Source: Candidatus Thorarchaeota archaeon
GTDB lineage: Archaea; Asgardarchaeota; Thorarchaeia; Thorarchaeales; Thorarchaeaceae
Assembly (NCBI GenBank): GCA_048884965.1
Contig: JBHLQH010000012.1
Coordinates: forward strand, 28,428-92,427
Direction: 5' to 3'
Length of the DNA stretch: 64,000 nt
Below are positions 87 through 57,496 of this stretch, one piece after another. The notes below the pieces were generated by a model, which did not search any database, was not told the DNA's origin, and saw only the letters and a program-made list of their open reading frames with translations. The position numbers were made by a program, and so were the translations under genes. The number at the start of each line of letters is the position of its first letter. Positions within the stretch are counted from its first letter, which is position 1.

Positions 87-3000
87 ATGAAGGGTAATTT
101 TTCAAGAATTCGTTTTGAAAGGAAGAAAAACTTTGCTGGTGTTATGCATCAGCAAGGTAAGGTCTTACTTGATAGAGATTGGAATGAGCAAGTCGATATT
201 CAAAACGAATGGCAAAGATGGTCAGGCCGAGATGTGGTAGGTGCAGGTCTTGCAGCTGTACCATATTCAAATCAAGAAGGTTTCAAAGTAATTGACGCCA
301 AGATCTATAGAGGTTCTCTGGATTTACACTTGCACATATCACATGGAAGAATTTGGGCAGATGGACAGATACTCCATCATTCAATGGCATCAGAATATGT
401 CAAGGCGACTCCACTAGATGAAAATCAACGCCTTGAAAACCAAATGTTAAGAGGAAATGAATTCGCCGTTATTCTTGAAACGTGGAAGGATACAATAAAT
501 GGATTTCAAGATCTTGATTTGTTGGAGCCAGCTTTAGGTGGGGCGGATACAACTGAGCGAATTCAAAATGCATATCGATTTAGATATCAGGAATTACCCT
601 TTCAGAAACCAAGCTGTTCTGATGTCCGGAAGCTGATTCAGAGCTATCTATCAACCCCTAAAGGAAGGCTAACTGTTACCATCAAGTCTTCCGGAGGAGG
701 GACTGAAGAATGTCCTATGGATATATGGAGGGACTATACTGGTCTGGAGCACAGATTATATCGTATTGAAATTACTGATACTCCACTGAAACCGGGTCTT
801 TATTTCAAAATGTCACGATACAATGGAGAACTAGTTGGTAGAGGCCAAGTATCATCAACTACTGATTCCACAATTGAAATCAAAGGTAATCTCATGGAAA
901 TCAAAGCTTCAAAGTTAGAGAAATTTTACATTGATGTCATTGGTGTTGATTCTGACATTCATTCGTCTGATACCTATTGGAAGCCTCTAGTGAGTGGAAA
1001 AGCAGAGTTATCAAACAACAATGTTGTGATTACAGATTATTACTTGGGTAGTAAGGAAAAGCTCAAGGAAATTAATACGGAAAATGGAGTTTACTTCAGG
1101 ATATGGGAAAAGATACATGATGTGAAAGATTTCATTCCTTCAGGAATTCGTAGACGACCTGGCGAAGCGGTAGAACTAGAAGAGGGAATCTGTCTTTCAT
1201 TTGATATTGATGGGAAGTCACTTCTACCTGGTGATTATTGGCTGATACCAGTGAGATCATCTGATATGATAGAAAGTGCTGAAGGTGAATGGGTCTCTGC
1301 TTTTGGTTCATTGCCAACTGAGGAGGAACCTCATGGAATAAAATACACTCAAGTCCCTCTAGCAATTGTATCCTTTGACAAAAACAGCCTTGCAGATCCA
1401 AAAGAATCATCCAGTGTCTTTGATTGTAGAGTTTCATTTCCGCCCCTTGCAATGAGAACTGACTGTACAACATATTTCATTGGGGGTGATGATCCCTGCT
1501 ACCCTGGATTCGGATTAACTGTAGAGGAAGCATATCAGCAAATCAAACAAGAAGGAAGGGGAGGAGAAATCAAACTACTTCCGGGCAGGCATTATTTCAA
1601 CCTTCGAATTGACTCTCCAGGAATCAAGATTTCAGGATGTGGACCTAGAACTCTCGTATTTCCAAGATCTGATAAATATCCCATTTTTGATATTCGAAAT
1701 ACAGAACTTGTTAGAATTCAGGATATGAGTCTAAAGCATACACGTGAATGTGCGATTACCGTTAATGGAGAAACGACAAGTAACATAGACATTCTTCGTA
1801 ACTACATCAGCTCAAGTGGATTTTCCACTGAAAGCACATCAAAAATCATTCGTCATTTGGATGAGAAAAAGACACCACGTGACATTCTTGAAGAGATAAG
1901 GAAACTATTAGATAGGACAGAGTTAACCTTTGACACAAAGGAAAGAATCCTTAGGTGTTTGAGAGCTACAGGAGCTGGTCAGGATACAGTAGATGTGGTT
2001 ACTGAAGAGGTAGAAGTTGAAAATGTGCAAACCGCTATCTGTATTCGTGCAAGAGATGTTGTTATTCAAGATAACGAAATCAGAGGGGGCATCTTAGTTG
2101 CAGGAGGTTCAGAGGAAATCAGGATAATTGATAACATCATACATGATTGTACTGGAAATGGTATAATCTTAGGAGACTTGGTACATAGTAGTGATCTTAT
2201 TGCAAAGAGCCAAGAGAAAGGAAAAGAGTATCTGCTTGGAGAGAATCTATTCGGATTCCTGTATGATATACTTATAGATGGCAATGAAATAACTCAAACT
2301 GCAAAATCAGGGATAGGTGTAGGAGGTATCATTGAAGATGCTGACTATCCCATAGATGGAATTGATGACCCATACATCAAGAGTTTCTTGCAGCTAGGTA
2401 ATACAGTCGTGAATCTTCAAATATCTAACAATCACATTCATCACTGTCTCACTGATTATTCAGAAATCAATGAAACAGTTGATTCGGATGAGCTAAGAAG
2501 AGGTATTGTACCCGGCGGGATTTCAATACTTTCATGTGATAGAGTGCTTATTAGGAATAATCTAATTGAAGAAAATGGATTATGGCCAGTGTGCGGTATA
2601 TATATTCGATATGTCGAAGATCTCGAAATTCTTGAGAACAAAATCTCAAACTCTCACACGATTGGTAATGCGGTAAAAACCATTGAAATTCCTAGGTTAT
2701 TATCACATAATGCTGGAGGCATTATCATTGATTTTGCTGTAGCTGGTCTTGATGCATCTGAGGCTCCATCACCAAATGATGACATGAAGATAGGAATTGT
2801 AATTGATAAACCAGCACTTAGGATTCATTGTAATACTGTAAGGGTCGGGTATGGCTATTCGCTTTTTGCAGGAGCATATGGTCCTGTATCAATAACCAAC
2901 AATTGCTTTAGTACAAAAGCCACTTTGATACCAAGTTTCAATACTAACTGGCTTTTGGAACTTGCATCATTGACTGATTCACCATACAGCATTCTGAGAG

Positions 3001-3716
3001 CTCTTGGCGGATCAGTTCTCGTTTTCAATCTTGGGGGCTTGTTAAGTCTAATAAACAGTATATTGTGGTTAAGTGCACGCCCCAAGGGTTCATACGTGAA
3101 AAGGACATCTTACGAGAGTACAATCAATTTACTTGCGGAGGTTGACCCAAATCCACAAACGAAGTCTTTTGGAATTCTAGATTTCATTGGTGGAGCGTTG
3201 CGATATCTTATCAATGGAAATATAATCTTCAACGACAATCAAGTCTTCTGTGGAAGAGGTGCAAGAATAGCATCGCAAATACTTGTAACACTTGATGATA
3301 TGGAGTTTATTGGAAATCAATGTGATGTATTGATGACCCGAGAGTCAACTCACACACTATTGGGATTCATAAACACAGTACTTGTTGGTGTGACGTCGCT
3401 AAGAGCAACAAGCAATAGGTTCAAAGAAAACGTATTGGATTTCGATTATCAATACACATCTCCAGTTCGGGTCATAGTCCCGGAGAAGATAGTGGCGGTC
3501 GAACCTGCGTCTGTAGGGCTTCGAGAAGTGATGGTACCTCGTTCCCTATCAACGGGGAGTTTCAAGTCACTCTGGTCAATAAGTGAGATAATGAATAACA
3601 CATCGATGAATCAAGGAGACCATTGCATACTCAAGTCGGTTCTAATGCGTTTGTTCACAACTACAACAGCTAGAAACCATGAGATATACTGCATTGAAGC
3701 TATGAAGGGAGTTTAG
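87..3716 (+). CDS. DUF6519-domain eCIS protein with C-terminal right-handed parallel beta-helix (tail fibre/spike-like)
   Basis: N-terminus MKGNFSR...QQGKVLLDRDWNEQ, plus LLEPALGGADTTER and YTGLEHRLYRIEI, match the DUF6519 consensus. The C-terminal half has repeated 'IxxNxI' beta-helix motifs. Confidence 0.85.
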   Translation: MKGNFSRIRFERKKNFAGVMHQQGKVLLDRDWNEQVDIQNEWQRWSGRDVVGAGLAAVPYSNQEGFKVIDAKIYRGSLDLHLHISHGRIWADGQILHHSMASEYVKATPLDENQRLENQMLRGNEFAVILETWKDTINGFQDLDLLEPALGGADTTERIQNAYRFRYQELPFQKPSCSDVRKLIQSYLSTPKGRLTVTIKSSGGGTEECPMDIWRDYTGLEHRLYRIEITDTPLKPGLYFKMSRYNGELVGRGQVSSTTDSTIEIKGNLMEIKASKLEKFYIDVIGVDSDIHSSDTYWKPLVSGKAELSNNNVVITDYYLGSKEKLKEINTENGVYFRIWEKIHDVKDFIPSGIRRRPGEAVELEEGICLSFDIDGKSLLPGDYWLIPVRSSDMIESAEGEWVSAFGSLPTEEEPHGIKYTQVPLAIVSFDKNSLADPKESSSVFDCRVSFPPLAMRTDCTTYFIGGDDPCYPGFGLTVEEAYQQIKQEGRGGEIKLLPGRHYFNLRIDSPGIKISGCGPRTLVFPRSDKYPIFDIRNTELVRIQDMSLKHTRECAITVNGETTSNIDILRNYISSSGFSTESTSKIIRHLDEKKTPRDILEEIRKLLDRTELTFDTKERILRCLRATGAGQDTVDVVTEEVEVENVQTAICIRARDVVIQDNEIRGGILVAGGSEEIRIIDNIIHDCTGNGIILGDLVHSSDLIAKSQEKGKEYLLGENLFGFLYDILIDGNEITQTAKSGIGVGGIIEDADYPIDGIDDPYIKSFLQLGNTVVNLQISNNHIHHCLTDYSEINETVDSDELRRGIVPGGISILSCDRVLIRNNLIEENGLWPVCGIYIRYVEDLEILENKISNSHTIGNAVKTIEIPRLLSHNAGGIIIDFAVAGLDASEAPSPNDDMKIGIVIDKPALRIHCNTVRVGYGYSLFAGAYGPVSITNNCFSTKATLIPSFNTNWLLELASLTDSPYSILRALGGSVLVFNLGGLLSLINSILWLSARPKGSYVKRTSYESTINLLAEVDPNPQTKSFGILDFIGGALRYLINGNIIFNDNQVFCGRGARIASQILVTLDDMEFIGNQCDVLMTRESTHTLLGFINTVLVGVTSLRATSNRFKENVLDFDYQYTSPVRVIVPEKIVAVEPASVGLREVMVPRSLSTGSFKSLWSISEIMNNTSMNQGDHCILKSVLMRLFTTTTARNHEIYCIEAMKGV

Positions 3717-3728
3717 GAGAGGATAGTA

Positions 3729-4823
3729 ATGAGTGAAGAAAAAGAAAAGGAAATCAAATTGGATATAGAAACGGTGCTTGCATTTGCAAAAGAAGCAAGC
3801 CTGCCAGTTCTTGATAATATATCTGCTACTTTGTCATTGAGGGAAAAGCTACTCACTCATGAGTATCTGCGATTAAGTAGAAAAGATCAAACAGCTAAGA
3901 CGACCAAGCAACTTGAACTTACAGCAACCCGGCGATATTTCCCCTTATTCAGCGATCAAATGATGTTGAAGAAAGAATTACTCAGAATGGATCTTCAATC
4001 ACACTCTGACAAACAGGTAATCATTCATGGAAGGGTTGTTGATGATAGATTACTTGGACTACAGAAATTCAAAGAAAAAGAAATCAAGGTTGCGATATTT
4101 CATCAAAAGAAGTTGTATGGTGCGATAGATTCTGCTGAGATTGATGAAAATGGATACTACTTCTTCATTATAAATTCGGAACATCTGGAGAAACTCAAGG
4201 AACTAAAGCCAAATACGCTAGTCATTCGAGTAGTGGATTCTAGTCAAAAACCTGTAGCTGAATTTGAATCTCCAGAGATTTCGATTACAGGTGATATCAC
4301 TGGAGGTACTAGTATAGTTGCTAATATTCAGTTTTCGTCAACTATCAGGAGTAATTTGGTCAAGACGAGATTTTCGGAATATGAAACAAGTGAAAAATCA
4401 ACACTAAAGGGAATCTTTGAGAGATCTGAAATAACCAAACCTGCAGATAAAAAGAAACCCACAGATGAAAAGAAACCTGCAGATAAAAAGAAAACCTCAG
4501 ATGAAAAGAAACCTCCAGATGCTATCACTAAGGAAACCAAAGAGGCAAAGCATGAAGAAGAGAAGATAAAAGCAATCGATGCTACATCAGCAGATTCTCA
4601 AGTTGAAGTTGTAGATATAGCAAGTAGTAAGGTTGAGGAACTTAGAGCGATTAAGAAGATTGGAAAGGCAAAAGCTGAACGATTAGTAGAGAAAGGATTC
4701 GATATCCACAACATTGAAAGTGCGACTGATGATGAACTCAGAGAAATATTGAGCGAAAAAGAAGTAGAAGAGCTGAAAGAGAATCTAAGAGAATATCTCA
4801 AAAAAGGAAAAGAAGAGGAGTGA
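3729..4823 (+). CDS. eCIS-associated protein: central beta-sandwich (carboxypeptidase-regulatory-like), Lys-rich linker and C-terminal helix-hairpin-helix
   Basis: IHGRVVD...IDENGYYFF beta domain; LRAIKKIGKAKAERLVEKGF HhH motif; in operon after DUF6519 with GGAGAGG RBS. Confidence 0.6.
   Translation: MSEEKEKEIKLDIETVLAFAKEASLPVLDNISATLSLREKLLTHEYLRLSRKDQTAKTTKQLELTATRRYFPLFSDQMMLKKELLRMDLQSHSDKQVIIHGRVVDDRLLGLQKFKEKEIKVAIFHQKKLYGAIDSAEIDENGYYFFIINSEHLEKLKELKPNTLVIRVVDSSQKPVAEFESPEISITGDITGGTSIVANIQFSSTIRSNLVKTRFSEYETSEKSTLKGIFERSEITKPADKKKPTDEKKPADKKKTSDEKKPPDAITKETKEAKHEEEKIKAIDATSADSQVEVVDIASSKVEELRAIKKIGKAKAERLVEKGFDIHNIESATDDELREILSEKEVEELKENLREYLKKGKEEE
4437..4520 (+). repeat. In-frame 18-bp tandem repeat (4 full units plus 1 partial) encoding KP(A/T)D(K/E)K
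   Basis: aaacctgcagataaaaag / aaacccacagatgaaaag / aaacctgcagataaaaag / aaaacctcagatgaaaag / aaacctccagat. Confidence 0.9.
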
Positions 4824-4833
4824 ACATCGAATC

Positions 4834-7800
4834 ATGGCTTCTTCTTTCGAAAGCATCAAAGCAAAGGAAAAGAAGAATGATCAGAAGCAAGAATCACAGC
4901 GAAAAGAACAGAACAACCCTCACTTGCATTCAATTCCAATTATACAAACCCAATTGATTTGTCCTTGTAACGGAACTTGTCCATCATGTCTATCTATCTT
5001 ACAGGAAAGTAGTATTGACACTCAAGATAGAGATTATTATGAAAAAGAAGCAGAAAGTGTAGCACACCAAATCATGCATGGAAAACCAGTTTCATCAATT
5101 TCTAGAATAGGTTCATTCTCACCAGTGAAAAGTATGAGTTCACCTACTGAAACCTCAGATGGATTTTCACCAATAGTTGCAGAAATTCAAAATGCATCCA
5201 ATACTGGTAGTCCACTATCAGAAAACCATCGATCCTTCTATGAAGACCGATTTCAACATGATTTCAGCAGAGTATCGATTCATTCAGGGATAAAAGCGAA
5301 TAATCTAGCATCAGATCTACATGCAAGAGCATTCACACTTGGAAATGACATCTTCTTAGGAAGACATGGAACGAGCTTGTCTAAGGATGCTAGCAGGCAT
5401 CTATTAGCACACGAGCTAGCACATGTAATTCAGCAAGAATCACTTTCTCGAAGCTCCTTGATCCAAAAGCAGGCAATTGAATCAGCGCCAGCGCCTATTG
5501 TAGAACCAGAAGCAGGTACTGAAACAGAGGAAGAAGCAATAGGTGAGGAGCCACCAACTGAAGTCATCAATATTCAAGGTGAAAGTAAATTACCTTTGTC
5601 CCCAAAGATCAAGCAATGGTTGGAGAAACAGGATTCGCAACAAGGAATGATCAATGTCCGATTTGGAAACATAGCTACAGGGAGGATCAACATTAGAAAA
5701 CAAGGAAACCTCTATTGCTTCAACAAACAGGCACTGACATTGAATCATCCTCTTCTTGCTCGATTGAAGGCGATAACATCTGAACTGACACCACAGCTAC
5801 TTTTGACTGCACCAGAAGGAGAAATACGAGGCTTTATTGGACTTGGAGCTCAATCTCGTGAATCCTTGGATGAAACTCTGAAAAAGATGCCAGAAGTTAT
5901 TGGTTTGTCCGGCATTGACCTAAGCCGAATACCTAAATTGACAAATATACTTGAAAAGGGACATTTGAATCTAGGTGTGTCAGGTCAGGTAATGCTTGGC
6001 GGCGCATTTTCAACTGAACTGAATCTTAATGCACAAGACGAGAATATCACATTTTCAGCTTTTGCAGATATCAAGGTTCGCGGATTGGCATCGGCTAAGA
6101 TGGAATTGAAACGTGAAGCAGATGGTAAGATCACTGGTGAAGGAACAGCAGATGTGCAAGTATCGAAGAGTGTTACTGGAACCTTTAATGTTGTGTGGGA
6201 CGGTAGTGCACTTTCCGGATCAGGTACTGTTGGTTATGAAGGAGAGAAGTTCTCAGGCCAAGTGATGCTCGCTCTCATGGAACGTGAAGAAGCAAGGCAG
6301 AAAGTAGCTGAAAAGAAGGCAGAAGCAGAAGGAAAAGAACCTCCAGCTGCGAAAAAGAAACCTGGCAAGAAGAAGACAAACTATGTTCTCTTTGGAGAAG
6401 GGGATCTGAATTTCTCATTTACTGATTGGCTAAGTGGAACGGCTCATGTGATTGTCGATCAAAAGGGTGACATTACTGTAATGGGAGAAATCAAACCTCA
6501 GAAAGAATTCGAGATATTCCCACAAAAGGACTATGTTAAGGAACTTCTAAAGGTTGAGGGCAGAGCTAAATATGGATTGCCTGTAGTCGGAAATATATTC
6601 ATCTTCATAGGAGTTGGTTTGGATGCATTTGCAAAATTGGGACCAGCGAAGTTCTACGATATCGTTGTGAAAGGAACTTACTCTACAGATCCAAAGGTTA
6701 GCAAAGACTTCAGTGTTGAAGGACGACTCAATATATCTGCCGCTGCGGGACTTCGTGTTCGTGGAGAAGCTGGCTTAGGTGTAGAAATACTGGCACATGA
6801 TATCAAGGCAGGAGCAGGTGTTAATGGAATTGCAGCAATTCGAGGCTATGCTGAAGCGATGACAAAGATAGGTTATCGTGAGAAAGGAAAAGAGGGAGAA
6901 GATAAGAGAGGTGAATTTTTCATTAAAGGTAACTTGGAAATTGCTGCGCAGCCTTTCCTGGGATTGAGTGGAGACCTCTTTGTTGAAGTTGATGCCCCTT
7001 GGTGGTCACCAGTCCCTGATAAGAAATGGACCTGGCCATTAGGTGGGAAAGAATGGCCTATTGGTGGTAGCTATGGACTCAATGCAGGATTGGACTATGT
7101 GATTGGCTCTGGAGAACCTCCGACGATCGATCTACAACCTGCTGAATTCTCAGCAGAGAAGTTCATGACAGATTTGTATTCAGACAAGGCTAAAGACAAG
7201 AGTCCTGAGAAAGAAACTAAGGGCACTTGGAAAGAAAAGGGAACAAAAGAAGCAGATGTACCACCAAAGAAACCTAAGCAAGGAAATGCAACTCACGGGA
7301 AGATAAAAGAGGCACAGAAAGCAAAATCAAAGGTAAAACCTGGAATATCAAAGAAATCAAAGAAAGAGGTTGGTCCAAAAACAAAGACCGCTGAGGGAAA
7401 AACTGTAGAAGATCTTCAGAAAGAAGCGGCCAAGAAGGGGAAGAAACCGAAAGCTGCACAAGTTCCATCTGGTGAACTAGAACCTGATAAAGTAACTCCT
7501 GAAGCGCAAAAGGGTTCTAAATGGGAGAGAGGAAAAGAAGTTGTAAAGCAAGCTTTGGCTTTCGCAGATAAGACTGGAATTGGAGAGAAGGATTTGAAGA
7601 GAATCCTGAATTCAATTAGAAAACAGAAACGCTATGGCTTCACTGCATTATATCCAAAACGGATTGGGAAGAAATGGGAGATAATTGGTTCCATGAGTAA
7701 AGGATCGAAGATAGGTGAAGTCAAAGCAACTGAGAGTACTGGTGAAGAAAAGCCCTATACTTGGGCAGAAATACGCCGAAGAACTCCGACTGAGAAGCTT

Positions 7801-8238
7801 AGAGAGTGGGCACAAGAGGAATTAAAGAAAATACCGGGTTATCCCGTGGATCCTGCATTTCCTAAAGAAGAAAATGTACAAATCGATGGCCCAGGTCAAG
7901 CAGACCATATTGTTGCAGCTAACAGAATTCGAAAATCAACAGAATTCACTGAAAGTTTTGTTCACAAAGGAGAAAAGATGGGATTCTGGAATTTAAACAA
8001 TAAGAATAAGCTAGCTGTGATGAATCTCAAAGAGAACTTCGAGCCAATGAGTCCATTGGCAAATAGATCCAGGGGAGATAAGAAATTTGCTGAATGGTGG
8101 GGCTATAAAAAGAAGAATATCCCAGCAGATGCTAATTTCAAGAAAAGGATGATTGCCAAGGAGAGAGAATCAGAGGGGACATTGAAGAAGAAAATCAGAA
8201 TGCTTTTGAAGGAACAATTAGCTCAGGAGGAATCTTGA
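4834..8238 (+). CDS. DUF4157 (eCIS core) effector with beta-rich stalk and C-terminal HNH-type nuclease toxin
   Basis: CPCNGTCPSC motif, EKEAESVA, DFSRVSIHS..ARAFTLGNDIF..LLAHELAHVIQQ (DUF4157). C-terminal ADHIVA...N..EN...ANRSRG is an HNH/GH-E-like tip. Confidence 0.8.
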   Translation: MASSFESIKAKEKKNDQKQESQRKEQNNPHLHSIPIIQTQLICPCNGTCPSCLSILQESSIDTQDRDYYEKEAESVAHQIMHGKPVSSISRIGSFSPVKSMSSPTETSDGFSPIVAEIQNASNTGSPLSENHRSFYEDRFQHDFSRVSIHSGIKANNLASDLHARAFTLGNDIFLGRHGTSLSKDASRHLLAHELAHVIQQESLSRSSLIQKQAIESAPAPIVEPEAGTETEEEAIGEEPPTEVINIQGESKLPLSPKIKQWLEKQDSQQGMINVRFGNIATGRINIRKQGNLYCFNKQALTLNHPLLARLKAITSELTPQLLLTAPEGEIRGFIGLGAQSRESLDETLKKMPEVIGLSGIDLSRIPKLTNILEKGHLNLGVSGQVMLGGAFSTELNLNAQDENITFSAFADIKVRGLASAKMELKREADGKITGEGTADVQVSKSVTGTFNVVWDGSALSGSGTVGYEGEKFSGQVMLALMEREEARQKVAEKKAEAEGKEPPAAKKKPGKKKTNYVLFGEGDLNFSFTDWLSGTAHVIVDQKGDITVMGEIKPQKEFEIFPQKDYVKELLKVEGRAKYGLPVVGNIFIFIGVGLDAFAKLGPAKFYDIVVKGTYSTDPKVSKDFSVEGRLNISAAAGLRVRGEAGLGVEILAHDIKAGAGVNGIAAIRGYAEAMTKIGYREKGKEGEDKRGEFFIKGNLEIAAQPFLGLSGDLFVEVDAPWWSPVPDKKWTWPLGGKEWPIGGSYGLNAGLDYVIGSGEPPTIDLQPAEFSAEKFMTDLYSDKAKDKSPEKETKGTWKEKGTKEADVPPKKPKQGNATHGKIKEAQKAKSKVKPGISKKSKKEVGPKTKTAEGKTVEDLQKEAAKKGKKPKAAQVPSGELEPDKVTPEAQKGSKWERGKEVVKQALAFADKTGIGEKDLKRILNSIRKQKRYGFTALYPKRIGKKWEIIGSMSKGSKIGEVKATESTGEEKPYTWAEIRRRTPTEKLREWAQEELKKIPGYPVDPAFPKEENVQIDGPGQADHIVAANRIRKSTEFTESFVHKGEKMGFWNLNNKNKLAVMNLKENFEPMSPLANRSRGDKKFAEWWGYKKKNIPADANFKKRMIAKERESEGTLKKKIRMLLKEQLAQEES

Positions 8239-8285
8239 TTATCGGTTGGCTTAGAACAGAATTCAGGGGGTGAAAGGAGGTATCA

Positions 8286-9800
8286 ATAGATTGGAAACAT
8301 AGAGCTGGGATTCGAAAAGATGAAGATCAAAAGGCTCGGAAATCGATAAAAACTCCTGAAGAAGAGAATAGGATTGGTAAATGGCAGATTCAGCCAACAA
8401 CACCAACATGTGCATGTACTGGCTTCTGCCCTGCCTGTAAGGCTTCAAATACTCAGGGTCTGAGTTCTCAAAATTACATTGAACAAAGTAGGTTGGAGCA
8501 TGAAGCGGATAATATCGCAAATCGGATTGCTAGTGTTCCATCCAGTTTTCAGTCTGATGATCTATCTTTATCTGAGGATTTAACTCCAAATCCAAAATCA
8601 AGAAGCGGCGCATCAATAAGCTCATCACTAAAAAATAGAATGGAGTCTATAACGAACACGAGCATGGACAATGTTCGAGTCCATAACAACACTGCAGCAA
8701 ATAACATCGCCAACAACTATAATGCAAGAGCAGTCACATTTGGAGATAATATATGGCTGCGAGGAAATGAAAGTCCTGAGGATACTAAATTAATGGTACA
8801 TGAACTAGCACATGTAGCTCAGCAACGTAATCAACCGATGATCCAATTGAAAACATCATACCAAAGCCAGCTAGAAAATACATTCCAAAGAAGTCCCTAT
8901 ATTGAAGAAGGAAAAACCAAATATCATATTGACAAGAATGACATGTGCAATGTTACAACTCTTGCAATGCAACTCATCAAGTTGATTGGCAATGAAACGA
9001 ATACGCGAGATGCAGTTACATCGCTACTGATTAGGAGTAAGTATCCGAAGTCAAAGAGGGATAAGTTGGAAGGCATGACCATTGCTGACCTACTTATTAC
9101 TAGATTCTATCAGATAAAGAAATGGAAAGCGAAATTAGAGCTTTACTTTCCTGATAGAAATAAAGATGGCAAACTATGGCAGCGCTTCAAAGAAATGAAG
9201 GATAAGAGTGGAAGTAGCTTCTTCCAGATGGGTTTGCCTTTAATTATCGTCGGACTAGAAGTGCTACAAGAAGCCAACATTCAAGGTGAAGGAGAGTCAA
9301 TTTCCAGCAAGAAATATGCGCTGCCTCCGAAGGCAACTTGGAGCAAAGCAAACGCCAGAGCATATTTTGAAGGGAAGCTAAAAAATGAACTTGACTCTGG
9401 ATCAGCGATACTGATGTCCACAAAACTAACAGGTGGGCACATCGTTCATTTGAACAGCGTTATCAGCGGGCCTACCGGAGGAGTACTAATCGATGACCCA
9501 TTTGGTATACGGTTAGGATTTTACATGAAGAATAATTCAGATTTCAGACCAGTTATCCTTCGGGAGCGAAATAGACACTTCAACATCCTAAAGCGAAGAT
9601 TGATGCATAACACTCCTTTGTGGAATGAATTGCAAACTCTGAAAAAAGGAGATAGATTCCCCAAAAATGTTGGTGAACGCAATTTCTACAATTGGGAAGA
9701 AGTGGCGAAATTTAAAATTGGTAAATTTGTCAATATCCTTTCGAAGGGCATAGCCATAGATTTCTCATCGCTAACGGAAAATTCGATAAACGTCGAGTAG
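8286..9800 (+). CDS. Second DUF4157 effector with C-terminal C39-like (papain-fold) cysteine peptidase; probable ATA start upstream of the called TTG at 8493
   Basis: The frame is open from 8274 and includes CACTGFCPAC. Also ARAVTFGDNIW..LMVHELAHVAQQ, and CNVTTLAM / GGHIV / IDDPFG forming a Cys-His-Asp triad. GGAGGT RBS at 8276-8281. Confidence 0.75.
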   Translation: MDWKHRAGIRKDEDQKARKSIKTPEEENRIGKWQIQPTTPTCACTGFCPACKASNTQGLSSQNYIEQSRLEHEADNIANRIASVPSSFQSDDLSLSEDLTPNPKSRSGASISSSLKNRMESITNTSMDNVRVHNNTAANNIANNYNARAVTFGDNIWLRGNESPEDTKLMVHELAHVAQQRNQPMIQLKTSYQSQLENTFQRSPYIEEGKTKYHIDKNDMCNVTTLAMQLIKLIGNETNTRDAVTSLLIRSKYPKSKRDKLEGMTIADLLITRFYQIKKWKAKLELYFPDRNKDGKLWQRFKEMKDKSGSSFFQMGLPLIIVGLEVLQEANIQGEGESISSKKYALPPKATWSKANARAYFEGKLKNELDSGSAILMSTKLTGGHIVHLNSVISGPTGGVLIDDPFGIRLGFYMKNNSDFRPVILRERNRHFNILKRRLMHNTPLWNELQTLKKGDRFPKNVGERNFYNWEEVAKFKIGKFVNILSKGIAIDFSSLTENSINVE

Positions 9801-10391: not shown

Positions 10392-10581
10392 ATGCCTGCA
10401 ACGCTTTGAAGATACATTTGCTTTAATTAAGAAGGTATCTTAGTAAAAAATATTTACTCATACTGGCTCATCTCACAGCATCCTCGAAACCAGAGTGAAA
10501 ATTCAGGTCCTGCATTGAATATGCAATTTCTATCATAAATCAAGTATTCAAAATACATTGTCGGCAGGAAATCCAGCTATG

Positions 10582-11244
10582 TCAAGAAGATTTCTCCCTT
10601 TTCCCATATTTCCTTAGATAATATTGCCGCATGAAATGTGCCTCGAATTTATTGATTTCCTTCGCTCCTCCGAGGAACTCTGATTCGATGAAAGCCTTGC
10701 AGGCCTTCTCTAGGACGAAGGTGCAGGTGAATGCCTCTTCCATATCTCGACCGATGCAGACAGCACCATGATTTGCCATAAGCGCAGCATTTCGCCCCTT
10801 CAATGCTTTCATGGTCTTCTTCACAATCTTCTTTGTAGACGGAAGGGCATACTCGGCTACTCGAATGGTAGGACCAATGATCTGCACCATGTCATCGAGA
10901 ATAGGAGGAACCTCCCTTCGAGCCACAGCTACAGTGGATGCGTTCATTGAATGAGAGTGGATGACTGCACCAATATCCTTTCTATCCTTGTAGATAGCGA
11001 CATGCAACTTCATCTCAGCAGATGGCTTATGCTTGCCTTCCCAGTTGATATCATCCGAGCTGAAGTCTACGATCGCTATATCTTCGGGAGTAAGGGTTTC
11101 ATAGCCCATTCCTGATGGAGTTATGGCCATTCGTTGTAGATCGACTCGACAGGAGATATTACCCCAAGTCCCACCAACGAGTCCATTAGCAATGAGTTTC
11201 TTTCCAGCCTCACAAACGATGCTTTTTGCCTCATCTGCATTCAT
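10582..11244 (-). CDS. Class II aldolase/adducin family (fuculose-1-phosphate aldolase-like)
   Basis: GTWGNIS, ITPSG, PSAEMKLH, HSHS, ANHGA. Start moved to ATG 11244 behind an AGGTGA RBS. Confidence 0.9.
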   Translation of the reverse strand: MNADEAKSIVCEAGKKLIANGLVGGTWGNISCRVDLQRMAITPSGMGYETLTPEDIAIVDFSSDDINWEGKHKPSAEMKLHVAIYKDRKDIGAVIHSHSMNASTVAVARREVPPILDDMVQIIGPTIRVAEYALPSTKKIVKKTMKALKGRNAALMANHGAVCIGRDMEEAFTCTFVLEKACKAFIESEFLGGAKEINKFEAHFMRQYYLRKYGKREKSS

Positions 11245-11245
11245 T

Positions 11246-12796
11246 TCAATCACCTGAAGGGATAGCGAATCTCGCCTCATTTGCCTTCTTATAGACTTCT
11301 CTTAACGATGAATAGATTTCCTTGTAAGTTTCAAAGAGTGAATCATACACTCCAAAGTTCTCCTTATGAGGAGTGAATATTCCGGTTTCCTTGACGATCT
11401 CTTTCGCGAATCTGAAATCAGAGAATATCCCAGCTCCTACGAAGCCAATCATCGCAGCACCAATAGCACCAACGTACATAGGTTGCTCGAATGTCCGGAT
11501 GTTCCGTTTTGTCACATCTGCAAGAATCTGCATCCATTCTTTGCTAAGAGACCCTCCCCCAACGACGTTCACATCTGTGATGGTAAACCCAAAGTCCTTC
11601 TCAAAATTCTCAATGATCCACCGCAGGTTATAGGCGATACCTTCGTCGATAGCACGGATGACGTGAGCGCGTGTGTGCTCTAGACCCAGATTGAAGATGG
11701 TTCCTCGGGTGGTAGTAGTACTTACAGGACAGCGTTCTCCCAAGACCCATGGGGTGATGATGAGATGATCAGAACCAATTGGCACCGATGATATCTCTTG
11801 GTCCATGAGGTGGAAGACCTCGACATCATTCGGATCGAGTGATATTCCCTTGTAGAGCTCCTTGGATGCCCATTCAAGCAGGATGCCTGCTGACTCAGTC
11901 ACACCGACAACGATGTTCTTCTCAGGGTCAGCACTTTGGAGAGTTACTGCTCCGTTCCTGAACTTCGGAGCTTGCTCAGTTGCGATACCAAACCATGCGG
12001 AGGTTCCGAGATAGATGTGTGACTCCCCCTCTTCGACTGCTGTCGAGCCAACTAATGCGGATTGCGTATCATCACATCCTCCGAAGACAGGAATGCCTTC
12101 AGGAAGTCCCATGGACTCTGCAGCAACCGCAGTAAGCCCAGTACCAACTGGATCAATAGAACGAACAAGTGGTGGCAGCTTCTCCTTGTCAATCCCAATC
12201 AGCTTGAAGATGAGATAGTCCCAATCCTTCTTTTTTAAGTCAAAAGAATAGGAACATGCCCCTGACCATTCAGCTACCTTCTCACCTGTGGCTTTGAATT
12301 TCAAGAAACCATTAACATCCAAGAAGAGATCAGCTTTCTCATAGATATCTTGTCGTTCTTGCTTGAGCCAGAGCAACTTGCAGACAACATCCTTCCCAGT
12401 TATCTCAATCCCAATTATAGACTTGAAGACCTTCGTCCCACCAATCTTGCGCATAATCTGCCGGGCTTGCTTCTCAGCCCTACCATCTACCCAAGAGATA
12501 TTCGGATGCAGTACAACACCGTTCTTGTCAATAGGGATAACTCCCATGGCTTGAGTGGTGAAGACGATTCCTGCTAGATTATCTTTGGAAAGCTTATAAT
12601 TCGACGATATCTGACGAGTAGTCTTCACAATAGCATTCCAGTAGTCTTCAGGATCCTGCTCCACCCATCCTGGACGGGGAGTATGAAGAGGATAGTCCTC
12701 TATGGCATGTGCGACAACATGTCCATTTGAATCAACTAAGGCAGTCTTCACACTACTTGTTCCTACATCGTGCGCAATCACATATATTGGCATCAT
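11246..12796 (-). CDS. FGGY-family carbohydrate kinase (xylulokinase-like)
   Basis: DVGTSSVK, VEQDPEDYW, W.DGRA, GERCP, EGIAYN, GGGS motifs. Confidence 0.92.
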   Translation of the reverse strand: MMPIYVIAHDVGTSSVKTALVDSNGHVVAHAIEDYPLHTPRPGWVEQDPEDYWNAIVKTTRQISSNYKLSKDNLAGIVFTTQAMGVIPIDKNGVVLHPNISWVDGRAEKQARQIMRKIGGTKVFKSIIGIEITGKDVVCKLLWLKQERQDIYEKADLFLDVNGFLKFKATGEKVAEWSGACSYSFDLKKKDWDYLIFKLIGIDKEKLPPLVRSIDPVGTGLTAVAAESMGLPEGIPVFGGCDDTQSALVGSTAVEEGESHIYLGTSAWFGIATEQAPKFRNGAVTLQSADPEKNIVVGVTESAGILLEWASKELYKGISLDPNDVEVFHLMDQEISSVPIGSDHLIITPWVLGERCPVSTTTTRGTIFNLGLEHTRAHVIRAIDEGIAYNLRWIIENFEKDFGFTITDVNVVGGGSLSKEWMQILADVTKRNIRTFEQPMYVGAIGAAMIGFVGAGIFSDFRFAKEIVKETGIFTPHKENFGVYDSLFETYKEIYSSLREVYKKANEARFAIPSGD

Positions 12797-51124: not shown

Positions 51125-52924
51125 TCAACTCATCAGAATCATAGCAAGTGACTCCGGAATTTCTGCGGTCTTCACAGTGTCAAGTTCTTGGCTCCAAAAG
51201 AAATTGGTATATCTAAATCTCTCCTCCAATTCAACTTCCTCTTGCTTGCCCTCAAGTATGTTCATCAATCGAATTGGATCATATTTGGTGTAGACCACTC
51301 GGCTAAATGATTCATCTTTTCTTCCTATAACTTCAAGTAGTGCTAGCTCCGTCTGCGCAATTGTATCGTACTTGTCTGTAGGGAGATTATTACCTTCAAG
51401 AAGATCTAGTATCATAATCCTCAGAGATCTCATTAGTCCTAGGTAGCGCAGGGTCTCTCCTTCTGGCGGCGGTAATTCAAGTTCATCTAATCTATCTACC
51501 AAAGATTCGAGAAAGGGTTCACCAAGAAGTTTGTATGCTTGAATCATGCTATGTGTTGTAAAACCTTGAAATGCACGACCTAGGAAACTATGTTTTAAGG
51601 AGCTTATTCTCCTTTCAGGAGGAAGCTCGATATGATTATAGATAGGAAATATCACAGGATATTTCTTGATAATGTGTCTTATCCTTTTCCAAGCAAGCGG
51701 CGGGAAGTCAGAATGTCCTGGTGAACCATAGTCGTCGTAATGAAGTTTGGATTTCCACTCATCAAATATCTTGGAACCCGGTTCGGGCGATAAAGAGTGG
51801 ATTTGTATTATTACATTGTTTCTGGCTCTTTGCTTGATCTTGAAAGCCAATCTCCAAAGAGATCTCATATCCGCGTCTGTTTCTTCTGGAAAGCCTACGA
51901 TGAAAGCAACTGTGAAATTAAATTCCAACTCGACAAGGCATTCCAATGCTGTGTCCAATATCTCTAGGTTGAGTTTCTTGTTGATAATTTGCTGGAGTCG
52001 TTGTGTTGCAGCCTCTATTCCCAAGAACAAGTTCTTACAACCAGCCCGATTCATTATAGAGAGAATCTCGGGATCAATCGTATCGAATCTTACACTAGCC
52101 CCCCATTCAATTTGGGGGTCCAATTTCTCAAGTGCTTCACATAGTCTTATGGTGTAATTTCTATCATGTGTAAGTAGATCATGATTGAATATCACGATTG
52201 CATCGCCAAAGTGGCTACGTATCTCTGAAAGCTCGTGTAACACACGTTCAACTGACTTGACTCTATATTTTCTGCGGAAATAGACTGATGTTGAGCAAAA
52301 GACACACCCATATGGACAACCTCTCCCGACCTCCAGATGCATCGTTACCGGATTGGTTCCATTGTTACGCTTGCAGAGTTCGTAGAAGGGGATTGGAGTC
52401 GTATCCAAGTCTTCAATGGGTTCTGGCCAGCCATTATCGATAATAGTATCAGAATTCCTATGTACGAGACCCTTAATCATAGGAGAGAAATTCAGTATTT
52501 GTAGCTCTTTTACGTACTCTAAGAGAGCAACATCTGCCTCCCCTCTGATTATGGCATCTACATCTGGGAATGTCATTAGAATATCTCTAGCTGGAGATGA
52601 TGCTCCTGGGCCGCCGATAATAGTATGGATTTTTGGATTGTGTCTTTTTACCTGGCGACAAATATCTATCGCAATAACTAAGTTATTAGACATTGATGAT
52701 AGTCCAAGAACATCTGGTCGAGCAGCAGCTATTATATCAATTGCTTCTTTGAGAACCAATTCTCTATTGCCTTCTTCGAAGAGGGAGAGTTTTGTGAAAT
52801 CCAGTACTTCACACTCAATACCATTCTCTCTTAGGGCAGATGCGAGAACCAAGACCCCAAGACATCTTTGAAGTTCAACAGAATATCCAGATAGCTGATG
52901 GACTGCTACCAATACTACTTTCAT
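51125..52924 (-). CDS. Cobalamin-binding (class B) radical SAM enzyme, probable RiPP maturase
   Basis: B12 domain (LGVLVLASAL, PDVLGLS, IIGGPGA, IRGEAD); RGCPYGCVFC (CxxxCxxC); LGIEA; FIVGFPEET; long C-terminal extension. Confidence 0.9.
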   Translation of the reverse strand: MKVVLVAVHQLSGYSVELQRCLGVLVLASALRENGIECEVLDFTKLSLFEEGNRELVLKEAIDIIAAARPDVLGLSSMSNNLVIAIDICRQVKRHNPKIHTIIGGPGASSPARDILMTFPDVDAIIRGEADVALLEYVKELQILNFSPMIKGLVHRNSDTIIDNGWPEPIEDLDTTPIPFYELCKRNNGTNPVTMHLEVGRGCPYGCVFCSTSVYFRRKYRVKSVERVLHELSEIRSHFGDAIVIFNHDLLTHDRNYTIRLCEALEKLDPQIEWGASVRFDTIDPEILSIMNRAGCKNLFLGIEAATQRLQQIINKKLNLEILDTALECLVELEFNFTVAFIVGFPEETDADMRSLWRLAFKIKQRARNNVIIQIHSLSPEPGSKIFDEWKSKLHYDDYGSPGHSDFPPLAWKRIRHIIKKYPVIFPIYNHIELPPERRISSLKHSFLGRAFQGFTTHSMIQAYKLLGEPFLESLVDRLDELELPPPEGETLRYLGLMRSLRIMILDLLEGNNLPTDKYDTIAQTELALLEVIGRKDESFSRVVYTKYDPIRLMNILEGKQEEVELEERFRYTNFFWSQELDTVKTAEIPESLAMILMS

Positions 52925-52972
52925 GCAATGAGATTCTCCATTGGTTCCGCTACTTAATTCATCATTCGATTT

Positions 52973-53308
52973 TCAGAGATCCATATGTGCTACTGGGTCC
53001 TTCTCAGGCGGCACCGGAGTCACAGGAAGATTATCCCATGCTCCAGCAACAGAATCGCCAAACTTGGATTTTAGCCAATCTGGAATTGCAGAGTCATCAG
53101 GAAAATCATCAAACTCACTTGCTGTTGATCGGATTAATGCAGCTTTTTGAGCATCGTGAAGTTTCAAGTATTTCCATGCATTAACCTTCAACAGAACATC
53201 ATCATTATTGTTGACTAGAGCGGTTCGAAATGCCTCTTCAGTTGCTATCTTATTTCCAAGATAATGTAGAACCTTCTTCATTTCTGTATCTAATATCTCA
53301 TCACTCAA
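52973..53308 (-). CDS. Putative RiPP precursor with NHLP-like leader
   Basis: KIATEEAFRTALVNN resembles the NHLP leader 'A..D..FR..L'; SVAGA resembles a double-glycine site; GGAGGT RBS; lies directly upstream of the radical SAM. Confidence 0.6.
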   Translation of the reverse strand: MSDEILDTEMKKVLHYLGNKIATEEAFRTALVNNNDDVLLKVNAWKYLKLHDAQKAALIRSTASEFDDFPDDSAIPDWLKSKFGDSVAGAWDNLPVTPVPPEKDPVAHMDL

Positions 53309-53388
53309 TATGGGTACCTCCTAGATAACACAAACAGAAAATTGAACAATCTTTCAATATAAAACCCATTATTTTGGGATTATGCATA

Positions 53389-53443
53389 AATTTATCCAAG
53401 TTGTTGAAGTCCGCCATTTCAGGCAAATGAATTTATCCAAGTT
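53389..53443. repeat. 14-bp direct repeat AATTTATCCAAGTT (x2) in a divergent promoter region
   Basis: Copies at 53389-53402 and 53430-53443, 41-bp period. Confidence 0.8.
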
Positions 53444-54961: not shown

Positions 54962-55972
54962 TTAGTTGTTCACCTGTACGCTTGATGGACAGTGAGCAGT
55001 CTTATCCAAAAAGTAAGAGGTCTCCCTGCTCTCTGCAGAGAGATTTCCTATATTCTTTATCAAGTAGGAATTCATCCGGCCCTCTGACTTCATCGTACTG
55101 AAGATGATGCGAGCATTCACATCCTCAGCATAAGGCAGATTGCTGATCTCTTTCGAGACAAATCCCAAGTCCTTCACATGCTTGACAGTCATGTAATGAA
55201 GCATCTCGCTTCGGTCCTCATTATAGAATGTGAACCAGTGCTCCTCAGGGTAGATATCAGTCATGAACTCAGCAGCATCCTTTGGACCAGTGCTCCTCTC
55301 ATTCAATCTGTACTTGAGCATGAAGTTAACGCCGCCAGAAGATGGCAGGTTCAACCTAAGGGTGAGATTGATTCCACTGCACTCCTGAAACTCATGAATA
55401 GTCTCGCTGATCATCTTTGGAGAGAAACCAGTCAAGTCTGATATTTCAGTGATAGACATCCTGGCGTTATATGCCAAGTACTTCAAGACCTTCAGTTGAT
55501 GTTCATCCAACTGAGTCCTTCCGCCTGAAGAGGTATATTTGCACGAGCCGTCAACCACACCATTTGCAACTGGGGAGATCCTATCTACTTCAAATGATTC
55601 TATACCATCAAGCTTACTGATGCATGACTCGAAACCACTTCTTTCACTAGGAGCGATCTCCGCCAGGATAAGATACCGACCTTTACCTAGCATCATGACC
55701 TCTCCAATACACTCGTTTGCTTCGAACTGCTGGAATAGATCCATTTGGCTTTCAGTCCCATCTGTCTTGAGCTCAGCCAAATACCACTCCACACCCATCA
55801 TTTCCTGTGAGAGCTCAGCGATGTATCGTTGAATCACGCCCCATTGTCTTAGACGATTCGCCCTTGCAATGATTGTTGGACATGTGACCCGGAACTCTCT
55901 TGCAATGTTCCTGAAAGACTCTCGGCAGTTTCCGAGCAGTCGTGTGATGATTCTCTTGTCTAACCAATCCAT
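54962..55972 (-). CDS. Lrp/AsnC-family regulator with tandem wHTH domains (close paralogue of 36740-37678)
   Basis: MDWLDKRII..L..NCRESFR.IA....VTCPTI; LSQE..GV.W; CKYTSSG; NARMSI. GAGGTG RBS. Confidence 0.88.
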   Translation of the reverse strand: MDWLDKRIITRLLGNCRESFRNIAREFRVTCPTIIARANRLRQWGVIQRYIAELSQEMMGVEWYLAELKTDGTESQMDLFQQFEANECIGEVMMLGKGRYLILAEIAPSERSGFESCISKLDGIESFEVDRISPVANGVVDGSCKYTSSGGRTQLDEHQLKVLKYLAYNARMSITEISDLTGFSPKMISETIHEFQECSGINLTLRLNLPSSGGVNFMLKYRLNERSTGPKDAAEFMTDIYPEEHWFTFYNEDRSEMLHYMTVKHVKDLGFVSKEISNLPYAEDVNARIIFSTMKSEGRMNSYLIKNIGNLSAESRETSYFLDKTAHCPSSVQVNN

Positions 55973-56572: not shown

Positions 56573-57496
56573 ATGGTTATGGACCTACTTGATAAGAAAA
56601 TCTTGACCGAACTGACAAAGAACTGCAGGATGACATATCAAGAACTTAGTGACAAAGTAGGATATACACCAAATGCCATCCGAAAACGAGTGGACAAGCT
56701 CATTGAAAATGGCACTCTCTATTCTTTCACATTGCGACCTACTTTGAATTCTATGAACGCGAATATCGCACTGACACTTATAGAAACTGATGGTAGTGAA
56801 TCACCCAATGAATTCATTGATTCCCTTGGAACGAATGAGATGGTCGGAGAAGTCAATCCTATCGTCACCAAGGATCACGGTTTCTATCTTGTGCTATCAG
56901 ATTACGTTGGGGCTAACGGGATTTTTGATCTTGGTGGGTTCTTCAGAAGGCTAGACAATGTCATTACTGTAGAGATGCATCCGGTTATGACACAACCTAT
57001 CTATCATGGAAGGAAAGTGGAATTCCAGCCATTGGAGCTTAGTGTGATGAAGCATCTCTACGCAGATGCTCGAATGTCCATAAGAAACCTGACTGAAATA
57101 GCAAATATGTCTGCAAGAAGGATACGCAAGATACTTCTGAACCTTCAAGAAAGCGGTGGCATCTCGTTCTCTATCAGATGGAATACTGCAGCAGCAGGCT
57201 CTATTAGATTCTTCCTCGCCTTTCGTTATGATGTCAAGACATTAGAGCTACAGAAGGTCATCTCATGGCTGGAAGAGAACTACGAAAGAGAGTTCTGGCT
57301 CTATTGGATATCCACAAGTGAACCTCTTGTCTTTGCGAGCTTCACTGTCGAATCCATTGCACAGGCTAGAAGGATTTCAATAGATGTCCGCGCAGAATCA
57401 CCCTTTTCGTCAGTGAGAACTTGGATTTGCTACCCACCAAGAAAATTCAAGACTTATCCTGAAACATGGTTTGAGAAACTCCTTTTTAAGGAGTAA
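56573..57496 (+). CDS. Lrp/AsnC-family regulator with tandem wHTH domains
   Basis: MDLLDKKIL..L..NCRMTYQELS..VG...NAIRKRV; ADARMSI. Confidence 0.88.
   Translation: MVMDLLDKKILTELTKNCRMTYQELSDKVGYTPNAIRKRVDKLIENGTLYSFTLRPTLNSMNANIALTLIETDGSESPNEFIDSLGTNEMVGEVNPIVTKDHGFYLVLSDYVGANGIFDLGGFFRRLDNVITVEMHPVMTQPIYHGRKVEFQPLELSVMKHLYADARMSIRNLTEIANMSARRIRKILLNLQESGGISFSIRWNTAAAGSIRFFLAFRYDVKTLELQKVISWLEENYEREFWLYWISTSEPLVFASFTVESIAQARRISIDVRAESPFSSVRTWICYPPRKFKTYPETWFEKLLFKE

Follow-up and report, generated by a model that had tools for sequence, protein, structure and literature searches.

The closest described counterparts of the locus reported here are pathways for peptides that are made on ribosomes and modified after translation (RiPPs) with helical precursors, and peptide-modifying radical S-adenosylmethionine (SAM) enzymes. 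Os1348, from Pseudomonas sp. Os17, is an 85-amino-acid (aa) helical precursor with a crystal structure (6lk7; PMC7726476); its relatives PflA and PosA are modified near the C-terminus and have been termed NHLP-type, with neither a double-glycine site nor a protease in the cluster (PMC12636437). In the aminopyruvatide pathway of Burkholderia thailandensis, ApyD, a B12-dependent radical SAM enzyme containing a RiPP recognition element (RRE), produces beta-methyltyrosine at the penultimate residue of the precursor (PMC11117315). Proteusins of the polytheonamide type combine a long, structured NHLP-clan leader with class B radical SAM enzymes (PoyB and PoyC) that act on the core (PMC11285071), and DUF2063 proteins have been described as peptide-binding partners that carry RREs (PMC12710340). 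The searchable literature holds no modified ribosomal peptide from Asgard archaea, and genome-mining surveys list predicted clusters only (10.1101/2024.10.07.616454). We analysed a stretch of 64,000 nucleotides (nt) from a Candidatus Thorarchaeota archaeon (GenBank assembly GCA_048884965.1, contig JBHLQH010000012.1, positions 28,428 to 92,427; hereafter the window), in which a gene for a 111-aa protein adjoins the gene for a class B (B12-binding) radical SAM enzyme. With a probability that we put at roughly 0.72, the 111-aa protein is the substrate of the radical SAM protein, its modifying enzyme, in a RiPP-type pathway.

The small open reading frame (ORF) lies 48 nt upstream of the enzyme gene on the same strand (gap 52925–52972). 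This arrangement was proposed in a first-pass annotation of the sequence, and we confirmed its coordinates, the strong ribosome-binding site and the domains of the enzyme; the strings ATEEAFRTAL and SVAGA and the tail WDNLPVTPVPPEKDPVAHMDL are all present in the translation. Around 50 full-length relatives of the enzyme were found (32–48% identity), mostly in Thorarchaeota assemblies, with a few from bacteria (Leptospirales, Lernaella), and the DNA around 15 homologues, representing about ten distinct archaeal and bacterial lineages, was compared. All 15 other loci with enough upstream DNA encode one or two small same-strand ORFs in the equivalent place, with a shared N-terminal motif. These positional ORFs are mostly 77–112 aa long (longer where the start is unclear) and stop 44–173 nt short of the enzyme gene or, in the Lernaella locus, of an additional small radical SAM gene that precedes the enzyme gene. 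Pairing of the small ORF with the enzyme is more than chance. The annotation had named enzyme homologues without any similar small ORF beside them as what would refute its reading, and the opposite was found, with a small ORF at all readable loci.

Alignment of the small ORFs revealed an N-terminal amphipathic helix (h..hh.D..FR..L, ending D..F(R/Y)..L), a middle region with the pattern L-(T/S)-P-E-E and then a short hypervariable C-terminal part that usually ends on or close to an aromatic residue, most often Trp (for example, PPAWI, PAPASW, ITDW and VQCW). Some archaeal loci encode two different peptides (for example, the L003 type; L and P numbers denote related loci and sequences). As judged from these sequences, the arrangement has the anatomy of a RiPP cluster, in which a precursor gene with a conserved leader and a variable core adjoins the gene for the modifying enzyme.

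A word-based homologue search with the window peptide returned only itself, so its relatives had to be located by position. The 18 positional small ORFs were scanned singly against curated models, with match counts that overstate independence because several of the 18 are near-duplicates. NF038399 (‘Os1348 family NHLP clan protein’) was matched by 12 of the 18, with a best E of 2.6e-11; two reach its cut-off of 40 bits (L007, 43.4; L102, 40.7). PF14407 (Frankia_peptide) was matched by four and TIGR04509 by one, and the NHLP leader model TIGR03793 was matched weakly by two (best 19.9 bits versus a cut-off of 50.9). For the window peptide we found no match to TIGR03793 and none to NF038399 at E ≤ 1, nor any NF038399 match at E ≤ 10 in its whole genome. 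The search with leader models that the first-pass annotation had suggested was therefore positive for the relatives (NF038399, PF14407 and TIGR03793) and empty for the peptide itself, and the term NHLP-like applies to the window peptide via its relatives, not directly, because it reaches no curated model of its own.

Profile comparisons gave further, if faint, evidence of kinship. A leave-one-out hidden Markov model of the 17 positional homologues scored the window peptide at 9.6 bits, versus at most 7.2 bits in 2000 shuffles, and a profile of all 18 had 6lk7 (Os1348) as its top PDB sequence (E 0.0074), followed at weak scores by a nitrile hydratase alpha subunit and an NHLP leader. The window and L001 peptides could not be aligned with each other by BLASTP. 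By profile, the Os1348/NHLP-clan kinship of the window peptide is weak but consistent; taken with its position and its invariant residues, the leave-one-out profile points to a divergent member of the Os1348/NHLP-clan leader family. In common with Os1348, PflA and PosA, the small proteins look helical and precursor-like and are about 80–110 aa long, with an h..hh.D..FR..L N-terminal helix and a short variable C-terminal part that would take the modification, and lack both a double-glycine site and a protease in the cluster. They differ in their partners, which in Pseudomonas are GNAT, alphaKG-HEXXH and MNIO-nitroreductase enzymes and here a B12 radical SAM enzyme, and in the archaeal host, the tetratricopeptide repeat (TPR) partner, the longer tail with W-D and a Pro-rich stretch, and a peptide that in the window itself falls below the model.

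The family is sparse in larger collections: its profile gave 63 matches only (E ≤ 0.001) against 1.84 billion representatives, many of them ending near Trp. Two such matches of the Frankia_peptide type that end near Trp (P0148 and P0151) have other neighbours and no B12 radical SAM gene; the leader family is thus common to different enzyme sets, and these two proteins give no ground for assigning the Trp to the enzyme of the window. NHLP leaders are known to be common to different enzyme sets. Three further proteins (P0133, P0134 and P0135; 519, 1226 and 769 aa) contain three to five tandem Os1348/NHLP-like leader domains, and several matches of 135–167 aa (P0140, P0158 and P0166 among them) carry two leader copies with a separate tail each.

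Within the window peptide, the TTG start is backed by conservation of the N-terminus, since MSD is common to the window peptide and those of L001 and L005 in the alignment, and MS to that of L115. The gene is single copy in its genome. Together with its three closest relatives the peptide retains M1, S2, F27, R28, L31, W45, D77 and W91-D92, and across these four peptides W91-D92 is invariant while other tail positions vary. An AlphaFold2 (AF2) model is helical to approximately residue 92 and disordered over residues 93–111 (predicted local distance difference test (pLDDT) <50). A double-glycine-like site had been read in SVAGA, ahead of the tail. That site is unsupported, because the aligned positions are VAMT, VGFF and TSIF in the three closest relatives, ‘AGA’ occurs in the window only, W91-D92 alone is invariant after it, and neither the genome (95.7% complete; control genomes matched) nor the window encodes a C39 peptidase (PF03412).

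The partner of this peptide is a class B radical SAM enzyme by its domains, by a CxxxCxxC motif (C203, C207 and C210, all three invariant in 29 homologues) and by a fold in common with solved members. PF02310 precedes PF04055, as expected of the class, and the AF2 model (pLDDT 91) matches MgmA, AprD4, CysS, OxsB, TsrM and TokK, with MgmA and AprD4 tied best. The gene is single copy in the genome of the window; a contig scan with the enzyme alignment gave distant B12 radical SAM genes only (24–33% identity), which were set aside. The genome encodes several B12-binding radical SAM proteins.

Among curated families, the best match is ApyD (NF050148; 276.1 bits versus a cut-off of 750, E 5.6e-82), aligned over enzyme residues 16–432 and model positions 20–432 of 645. 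Scores were 103.6 bits for TIGR03975 (PoyB/C-type RiPP C-methylase; cut-off 281.85) and 82.7 bits for TIGR04014 (cut-off 360). The enzyme belongs to neither the ApyD nor the PoyB/C family, because it scores below both cut-offs. It resembles ApyD as a B12 radical SAM enzyme with an added, here putative, peptide-binding part, ApyD being an enzyme that methylates a Tyr C-beta near the precursor C-terminus, and it differs in an unaligned C-terminal third, in another precursor family and in a window without MNIO, P450 or SAM methyltransferase partners. The locus shares its logic with proteusins, pairing a leader of the NHLP clan, long and structured, with a class B radical SAM enzyme that would act on the core; epimerase, dehydratase and N-methylase genes are absent here, however, the core is short, and TIGR03793 is matched weakly and by two relatives only. 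The archaeal enzymes MgmA and Mmp10 act on methyl-coenzyme M reductase, which is a large enzyme rather than a small precursor dedicated to them, and have no C-terminal docking domain. The combination at this locus is an NHLP-clan leader with a class B radical SAM enzyme, outside ApyD, PoyB/C, TIGR03793 and NF038399 by their cut-offs.

The C-terminal domain of the enzyme is the predicted docking site for the leader. In the AF2 model, the last 170 residues form five helices followed by a beta-alpha-beta-beta-alpha unit, with residues 517–598 arranged as alpha-beta-alpha-beta-beta-alpha. A search for an RRE in this region had been suggested in the first-pass annotation; the last 170 aa of 25 family members gave no Pfam match (E ≤ 1), RRE/PqqD included, and no PDB sequence match. 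A structure search with the whole model against 48,161 chains was uninformative on this domain, as its matches were taken up by the two N-terminal domains. The nearest structures in the ESM Atlas, which are predicted models only, were DUF2063/HvfC clusters (template modelling score 0.64–0.67 by query), auto-named ‘RiPP maturation’ or ‘peptide modification chaperone’, and DUF4080. DUF2063/HvfC/MbnC-type proteins, the partners of MNIO enzymes, are separate proteins, whereas the domain here is fused to a radical SAM enzyme and has no sequence similarity to them; the likeness of the models to these peptide-binding proteins is a lead, not proof.

A model of the enzyme with the peptide reached an ipSAE of 0.73 (runs 0.71–0.73), versus 0.00 for the best of three controls. 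Among solved complexes, 58 of 80 attain the mark applied to such models; among mismatched pairs, 2 of 110 do (rough counts; custom alignments were used). Contact agreement among runs was at least 78%, and partner pLDDT at least 72. The confident interface joins enzyme residues 450–597, in the C-terminal domain, to peptide residues 12–23 and 55–87, with the leader modelled against enzyme strand 583–590 and the tail (residues 88–111) outside. This predicted complex fits leader docking with a free core, as well as the published protein–protein mode of NHLP leader recognition (PMC12455567, PMC12537861), and the modelling supports binding of the peptide’s helical part by the enzyme’s C-terminal domain. 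The proposal of an NHLP-like precursor with a B12 radical SAM enzyme thus holds through the positional relatives, the ApyD match and the complex model, and fails in the direct comparison of the window peptide with leader models.

A third gene completes the archaeal version of the module and was overlooked in the first reading. In every archaeal locus with sufficient flanking sequence (L001, with three copies, L115, L100, L005/L017, L099, L003, L012, L013, L014, L016 and L018), the pair is accompanied by a full-length homologue of the window’s TPR protein (23–42% identity), encoded either upstream in divergent orientation or downstream in convergent orientation; the bacterial loci compared have none. 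The TPR gene is the constant third gene of the archaeal module. The features of the locus are listed in Table 1.

Table 1 Features of the peptide, enzyme and adjoining genes in the window.
Feature	Position	Strand	Basis or remark
TPR (MalT-like) protein, 489 aa	49640–51109	plus	Convergent with enzyme gene; sub-threshold TPR_MalT and TPR_12 matches
Class B (B12-binding) radical SAM enzyme, 599 aa, putative maturase	51125–52924	minus	ATG start; Pfam and NCBIfam matches
Clade-specific C-terminal domain of enzyme, residues 430–599	51128–51637	minus	Predicted leader docking site; outside ApyD alignment
Radical SAM core, residues 198–356	51857–52333	minus	PF04055, 70.8 bits (cut-off 29.5)
CxxxCxxC motif	52295–52318		
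B12-binding domain, residues 22–136	52517–52861	minus	PF02310, 62.3 bits (cut-off 32.1); fold matches to corrinoid-binding domains
Precursor-like small protein, 111 aa	52973–53308	minus	ORF and start read from sequence; positional homologues
Core-like tail, residues 88–111 and stop codon (AGAWDNLPVTPVPPEKDPVAHMDL)	52973–53047	minus	Variable; disordered in model
W91-D92	53033–53038		
Leader-like helical part, residues 1–87	53048–53308	minus	h..hh.D..FR..L helix conserved; motif around F27-R28 (ATEEAFRTAL)
TTG start of the 111-aa ORF	53306–53308	minus	
Shine–Dalgarno-like GGAGGT	53316–53321	minus	7-nt spacer to TTG start; read from sequence
C25-like peptidase, 464 aa	53479–54873	divergent from peptide gene across 170-nt region	PF01364, 22.9 bits (cut-off 23)

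Under the reading that we prefer, a substrate peptide and its modifying enzyme, the folded helical N-terminal part (approximately residues 1–87) would be an Os1348/NHLP-clan ‘protein-like’ leader that docks on the enzyme’s own C-terminal domain (approximately residues 430–599), and the flexible tail (88–111) would be left free to reach the active site. With methylcobalamin and a [4Fe-4S]/SAM-derived radical, the enzyme would attach at least one methyl group to an unactivated carbon, either at or close to the invariant Trp91-Asp92 or within the Pro-rich segment that follows. The adjoining TPR protein would serve the archaeal version of the module as a scaffold, regulator or receptor. The comparisons establish the order of the genes, how the pair and the TPR gene are conserved, their family relations, and the fold and cofactor motifs of the enzyme, and docking on the C-terminal domain has the support of modelling. 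The reaction, its site and the fate of the product, including leader removal and export, are what we infer in this scheme: we give methylation slightly better than even odds, and W91 is a tentative choice of site that we would expect to be wrong more often than right.

Several observations weigh against this assignment. The best pairwise BLASTP match of the window peptide to its relatives is weak (E 0.002), the peptide reaches no curated NHLP, Os1348 or Frankia_peptide model, and AF2, given the peptide by itself, reached a pLDDT of 57, a confidence too low to justify a fold search. At the related archaeal loci, neither a leader protease nor an exporter is conserved beside the pair. The chemistry is not transferable from ApyD or TIGR03975, because the scores are far below their cut-offs; B12 radical SAM enzymes also catalyse non-methylation reactions, and AprD4, one of the two tied best fold matches, is a dehydratase. 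Finally, neither CobS (PF02654) nor CbiB/CobD (PF03186) was found in the genome at its 95.7% completeness, so that the cobamide would need uptake, and the organism is probably a cobamide scavenger.

The alternative that survives best differs from our reading only in what becomes of the product and what it is for. The small protein would stay intracellular as a whole, with one to a few modifications in its tail, and would act in regulation or signalling, with the TPR protein reading the tail. It draws on the absence of a protease or transporter conserved beside the archaeal pair (the first-pass annotation had also seen no transporter adjoining the pair in the window, which is correct), on a genome without a C39 peptidase and on the lack of a conserved double-glycine site, as well as on the presence of a TPR homologue in every archaeal locus with enough flank and on TPR paralogues elsewhere in the genome that adjoin other small proteins, one with a sub-threshold RHH_1 match. 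Os1348 and PflA precursors, likewise without a double-glycine site or a cluster protease, are reported to occur full-length in cell lysates (PMC12636437; PMC7726476), and MgmA, tied as best fold match, modifies a protein and is not a RiPP enzyme. Yet the tails are hypervariable as RiPP cores are, unlike the usual regulatory interfaces; in one bacterial relative, ABC/FtsX exporter genes follow immediately downstream; and RiPP proteases and exporters are often encoded elsewhere in the genome. On balance the intracellular fate, which the first-pass annotation had also proposed, is plausible, with the odds some way against it. A more specific version, an Asgard signalling or switch circuit built from the TPR protein, the small protein and the B12 enzyme, in which the TPR protein reads the marked tail to control gene expression, strikes us as distinctly improbable; if true, bacteria would have nothing comparable in gene content to this cytoplasmic or quorum-type system.

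A second alternative keeps the peptide as substrate and changes the chemistry, to a C–C or C–heteroatom cross-link involving Trp91, for example, or to a radical rearrangement. The enzyme falls below the cut-off of every curated methylase family, AprD4 and OxsB, neither of them a methylase, are among its best fold matches, and an aromatic residue near the C-terminus, mostly Trp, recurs in the wider peptide family. Set against this, the curated families closest in sequence, ApyD and TIGR03975, consist of RiPP C-methylases. Most characterized class B enzymes that modify peptides or proteins are methylases as well (PoyB/C, the bottromycin enzymes, MgmA and Mmp10; PMC11285071). We consider a reaction other than methylation unlikely.

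The substrate role of the small protein could itself be mistaken, if the ORF were an accessory or regulatory protein or were unexpressed and the true target of the enzyme were a small molecule such as a lipid or cofactor. Lipids or cofactors are indeed the substrates of many archaeal B12 radical SAM enzymes, several such families match the enzyme more weakly, and the window peptide reaches no curated family. The small ORFs nevertheless have a conserved leader and variable tails, are duplicated in some loci and have relatives in the NHLP clan; the window peptide has a strong ribosome-binding site and a conserved N-terminus, and the predicted complex passes where controls score 0.00. This explanation seems very unlikely to us.

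The genes on either side of the module suggest a last alternative. Beyond the TPR gene lies a TIR-nSTAND1-WD40 gene, which ends 238 nt before it, and upstream of the peptide gene lies the C25-like peptidase gene. A search of the 85 other genomes of its taxonomic family, seven of them with the enzyme, yielded no further copy of the peptidase, which is strain-specific, like the adjoining immune island. A tie of the pair to that island, as the first-pass annotation had it, or a role for the protease as leader peptidase, would have the proximity of these genes (238 nt and, divergently, 170 nt) in its favour, and is already disfavoured, with very little chance of being right, since the protease is missing from all 85 other family genomes and no TIR, STAND or caspase gene occurs at any related locus compared. 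The module is separate from the adjacent immune island.

The divergent 170-nt region between the peptide and peptidase genes contains a 17-nt direct repeat (53386–53402, ATAAATTTATCCAAGTT; 53427–53443, ATGAATTTATCCAAGTT; 41 nt apart), which could be a binding site for a regulator. Double-helix-turn-helix regulators of the Lrp/AsnC type are encoded near the module both in the window (54962–55972, minus; 56573–57496, plus) and at L001 (9452–10435); they may reflect shared local synteny or be the regulator of the module.

The spread of the enzyme is patchy. Among 400 genomes of the phylum, it was found in a single family, where 7 of 85 other genomes, from two genera, carry it and none of the six genomes of the window’s own genus does. 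Such a distribution is typical of accessory clusters. In a quick unrooted enzyme tree, which gives no direction of transfer, sequences from archaeal contexts formed one group, in which P0003 and P0004 were the neighbours of the window enzyme; their loci share the window’s gene order of peptide, enzyme and then convergent TPR gene. Bacterial paralogues fell in separate clades. The bacterial loci have three tandem enzyme paralogues: at L006, L101 and L102 three B12 radical SAM genes follow one or two Frankia_peptide-type precursors, a Pkinase-AAA_16-TPR-GAF-SpoIIE protein of ~1750 aa is always divergently encoded, and at L101 ABC/FtsX genes lie downstream.

Homology of the archaeal TPR protein to the TPR part of the giant kinase at these bacterial loci was not supported (best E 0.02 and 0.13), and its match to the RiPP TPR protein HaaT was not meaningful (15.8 bits versus a cut-off of 1125). 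At L001, the closest long related locus, three TPR paralogues surround one peptide–enzyme pair (2943–4433, 6843–8309 and 10575–11833). The genome of the window encodes two further TPR paralogues (33% and 23% identity), at L104 (G000:C13:13199-17671) and L105 (G000:C1:218765-223207). Beside them lie ORFs of ~100–116 aa with a common TRLSDDI..IDALVE.GIFKSRSEA motif, one with a sub-threshold RHH_1 match, and the pairing of a TPR protein with a small protein may be recurrent in this genome. Also beside the TPR paralogue on contig C13 is a gene (L104:2997–4241, minus) whose product has a single predicted membrane helix and, after it, some nine WNHPTDLPDG(x)P..P.EP repeats in tandem.

Together, the three genes conserved in some Thorarchaeia look like an uncharacterized RiPP-type pathway. 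The module is compact and easily testable, comprising a precursor, a TPR protein and a B12 radical SAM enzyme to which a predicted docking domain is fused, and its enzyme clade, which in bacteria also occurs as tandem triplets, is uncharacterized. Peptide modification by class B radical SAM enzymes would gain new chemistry from this pathway, and NHLP-clan leaders a new mode of recognition, through a fused DUF2063-like domain; the pathway would also provide a first handle on the role of small modified proteins in the closest prokaryotic relatives of eukaryotes.

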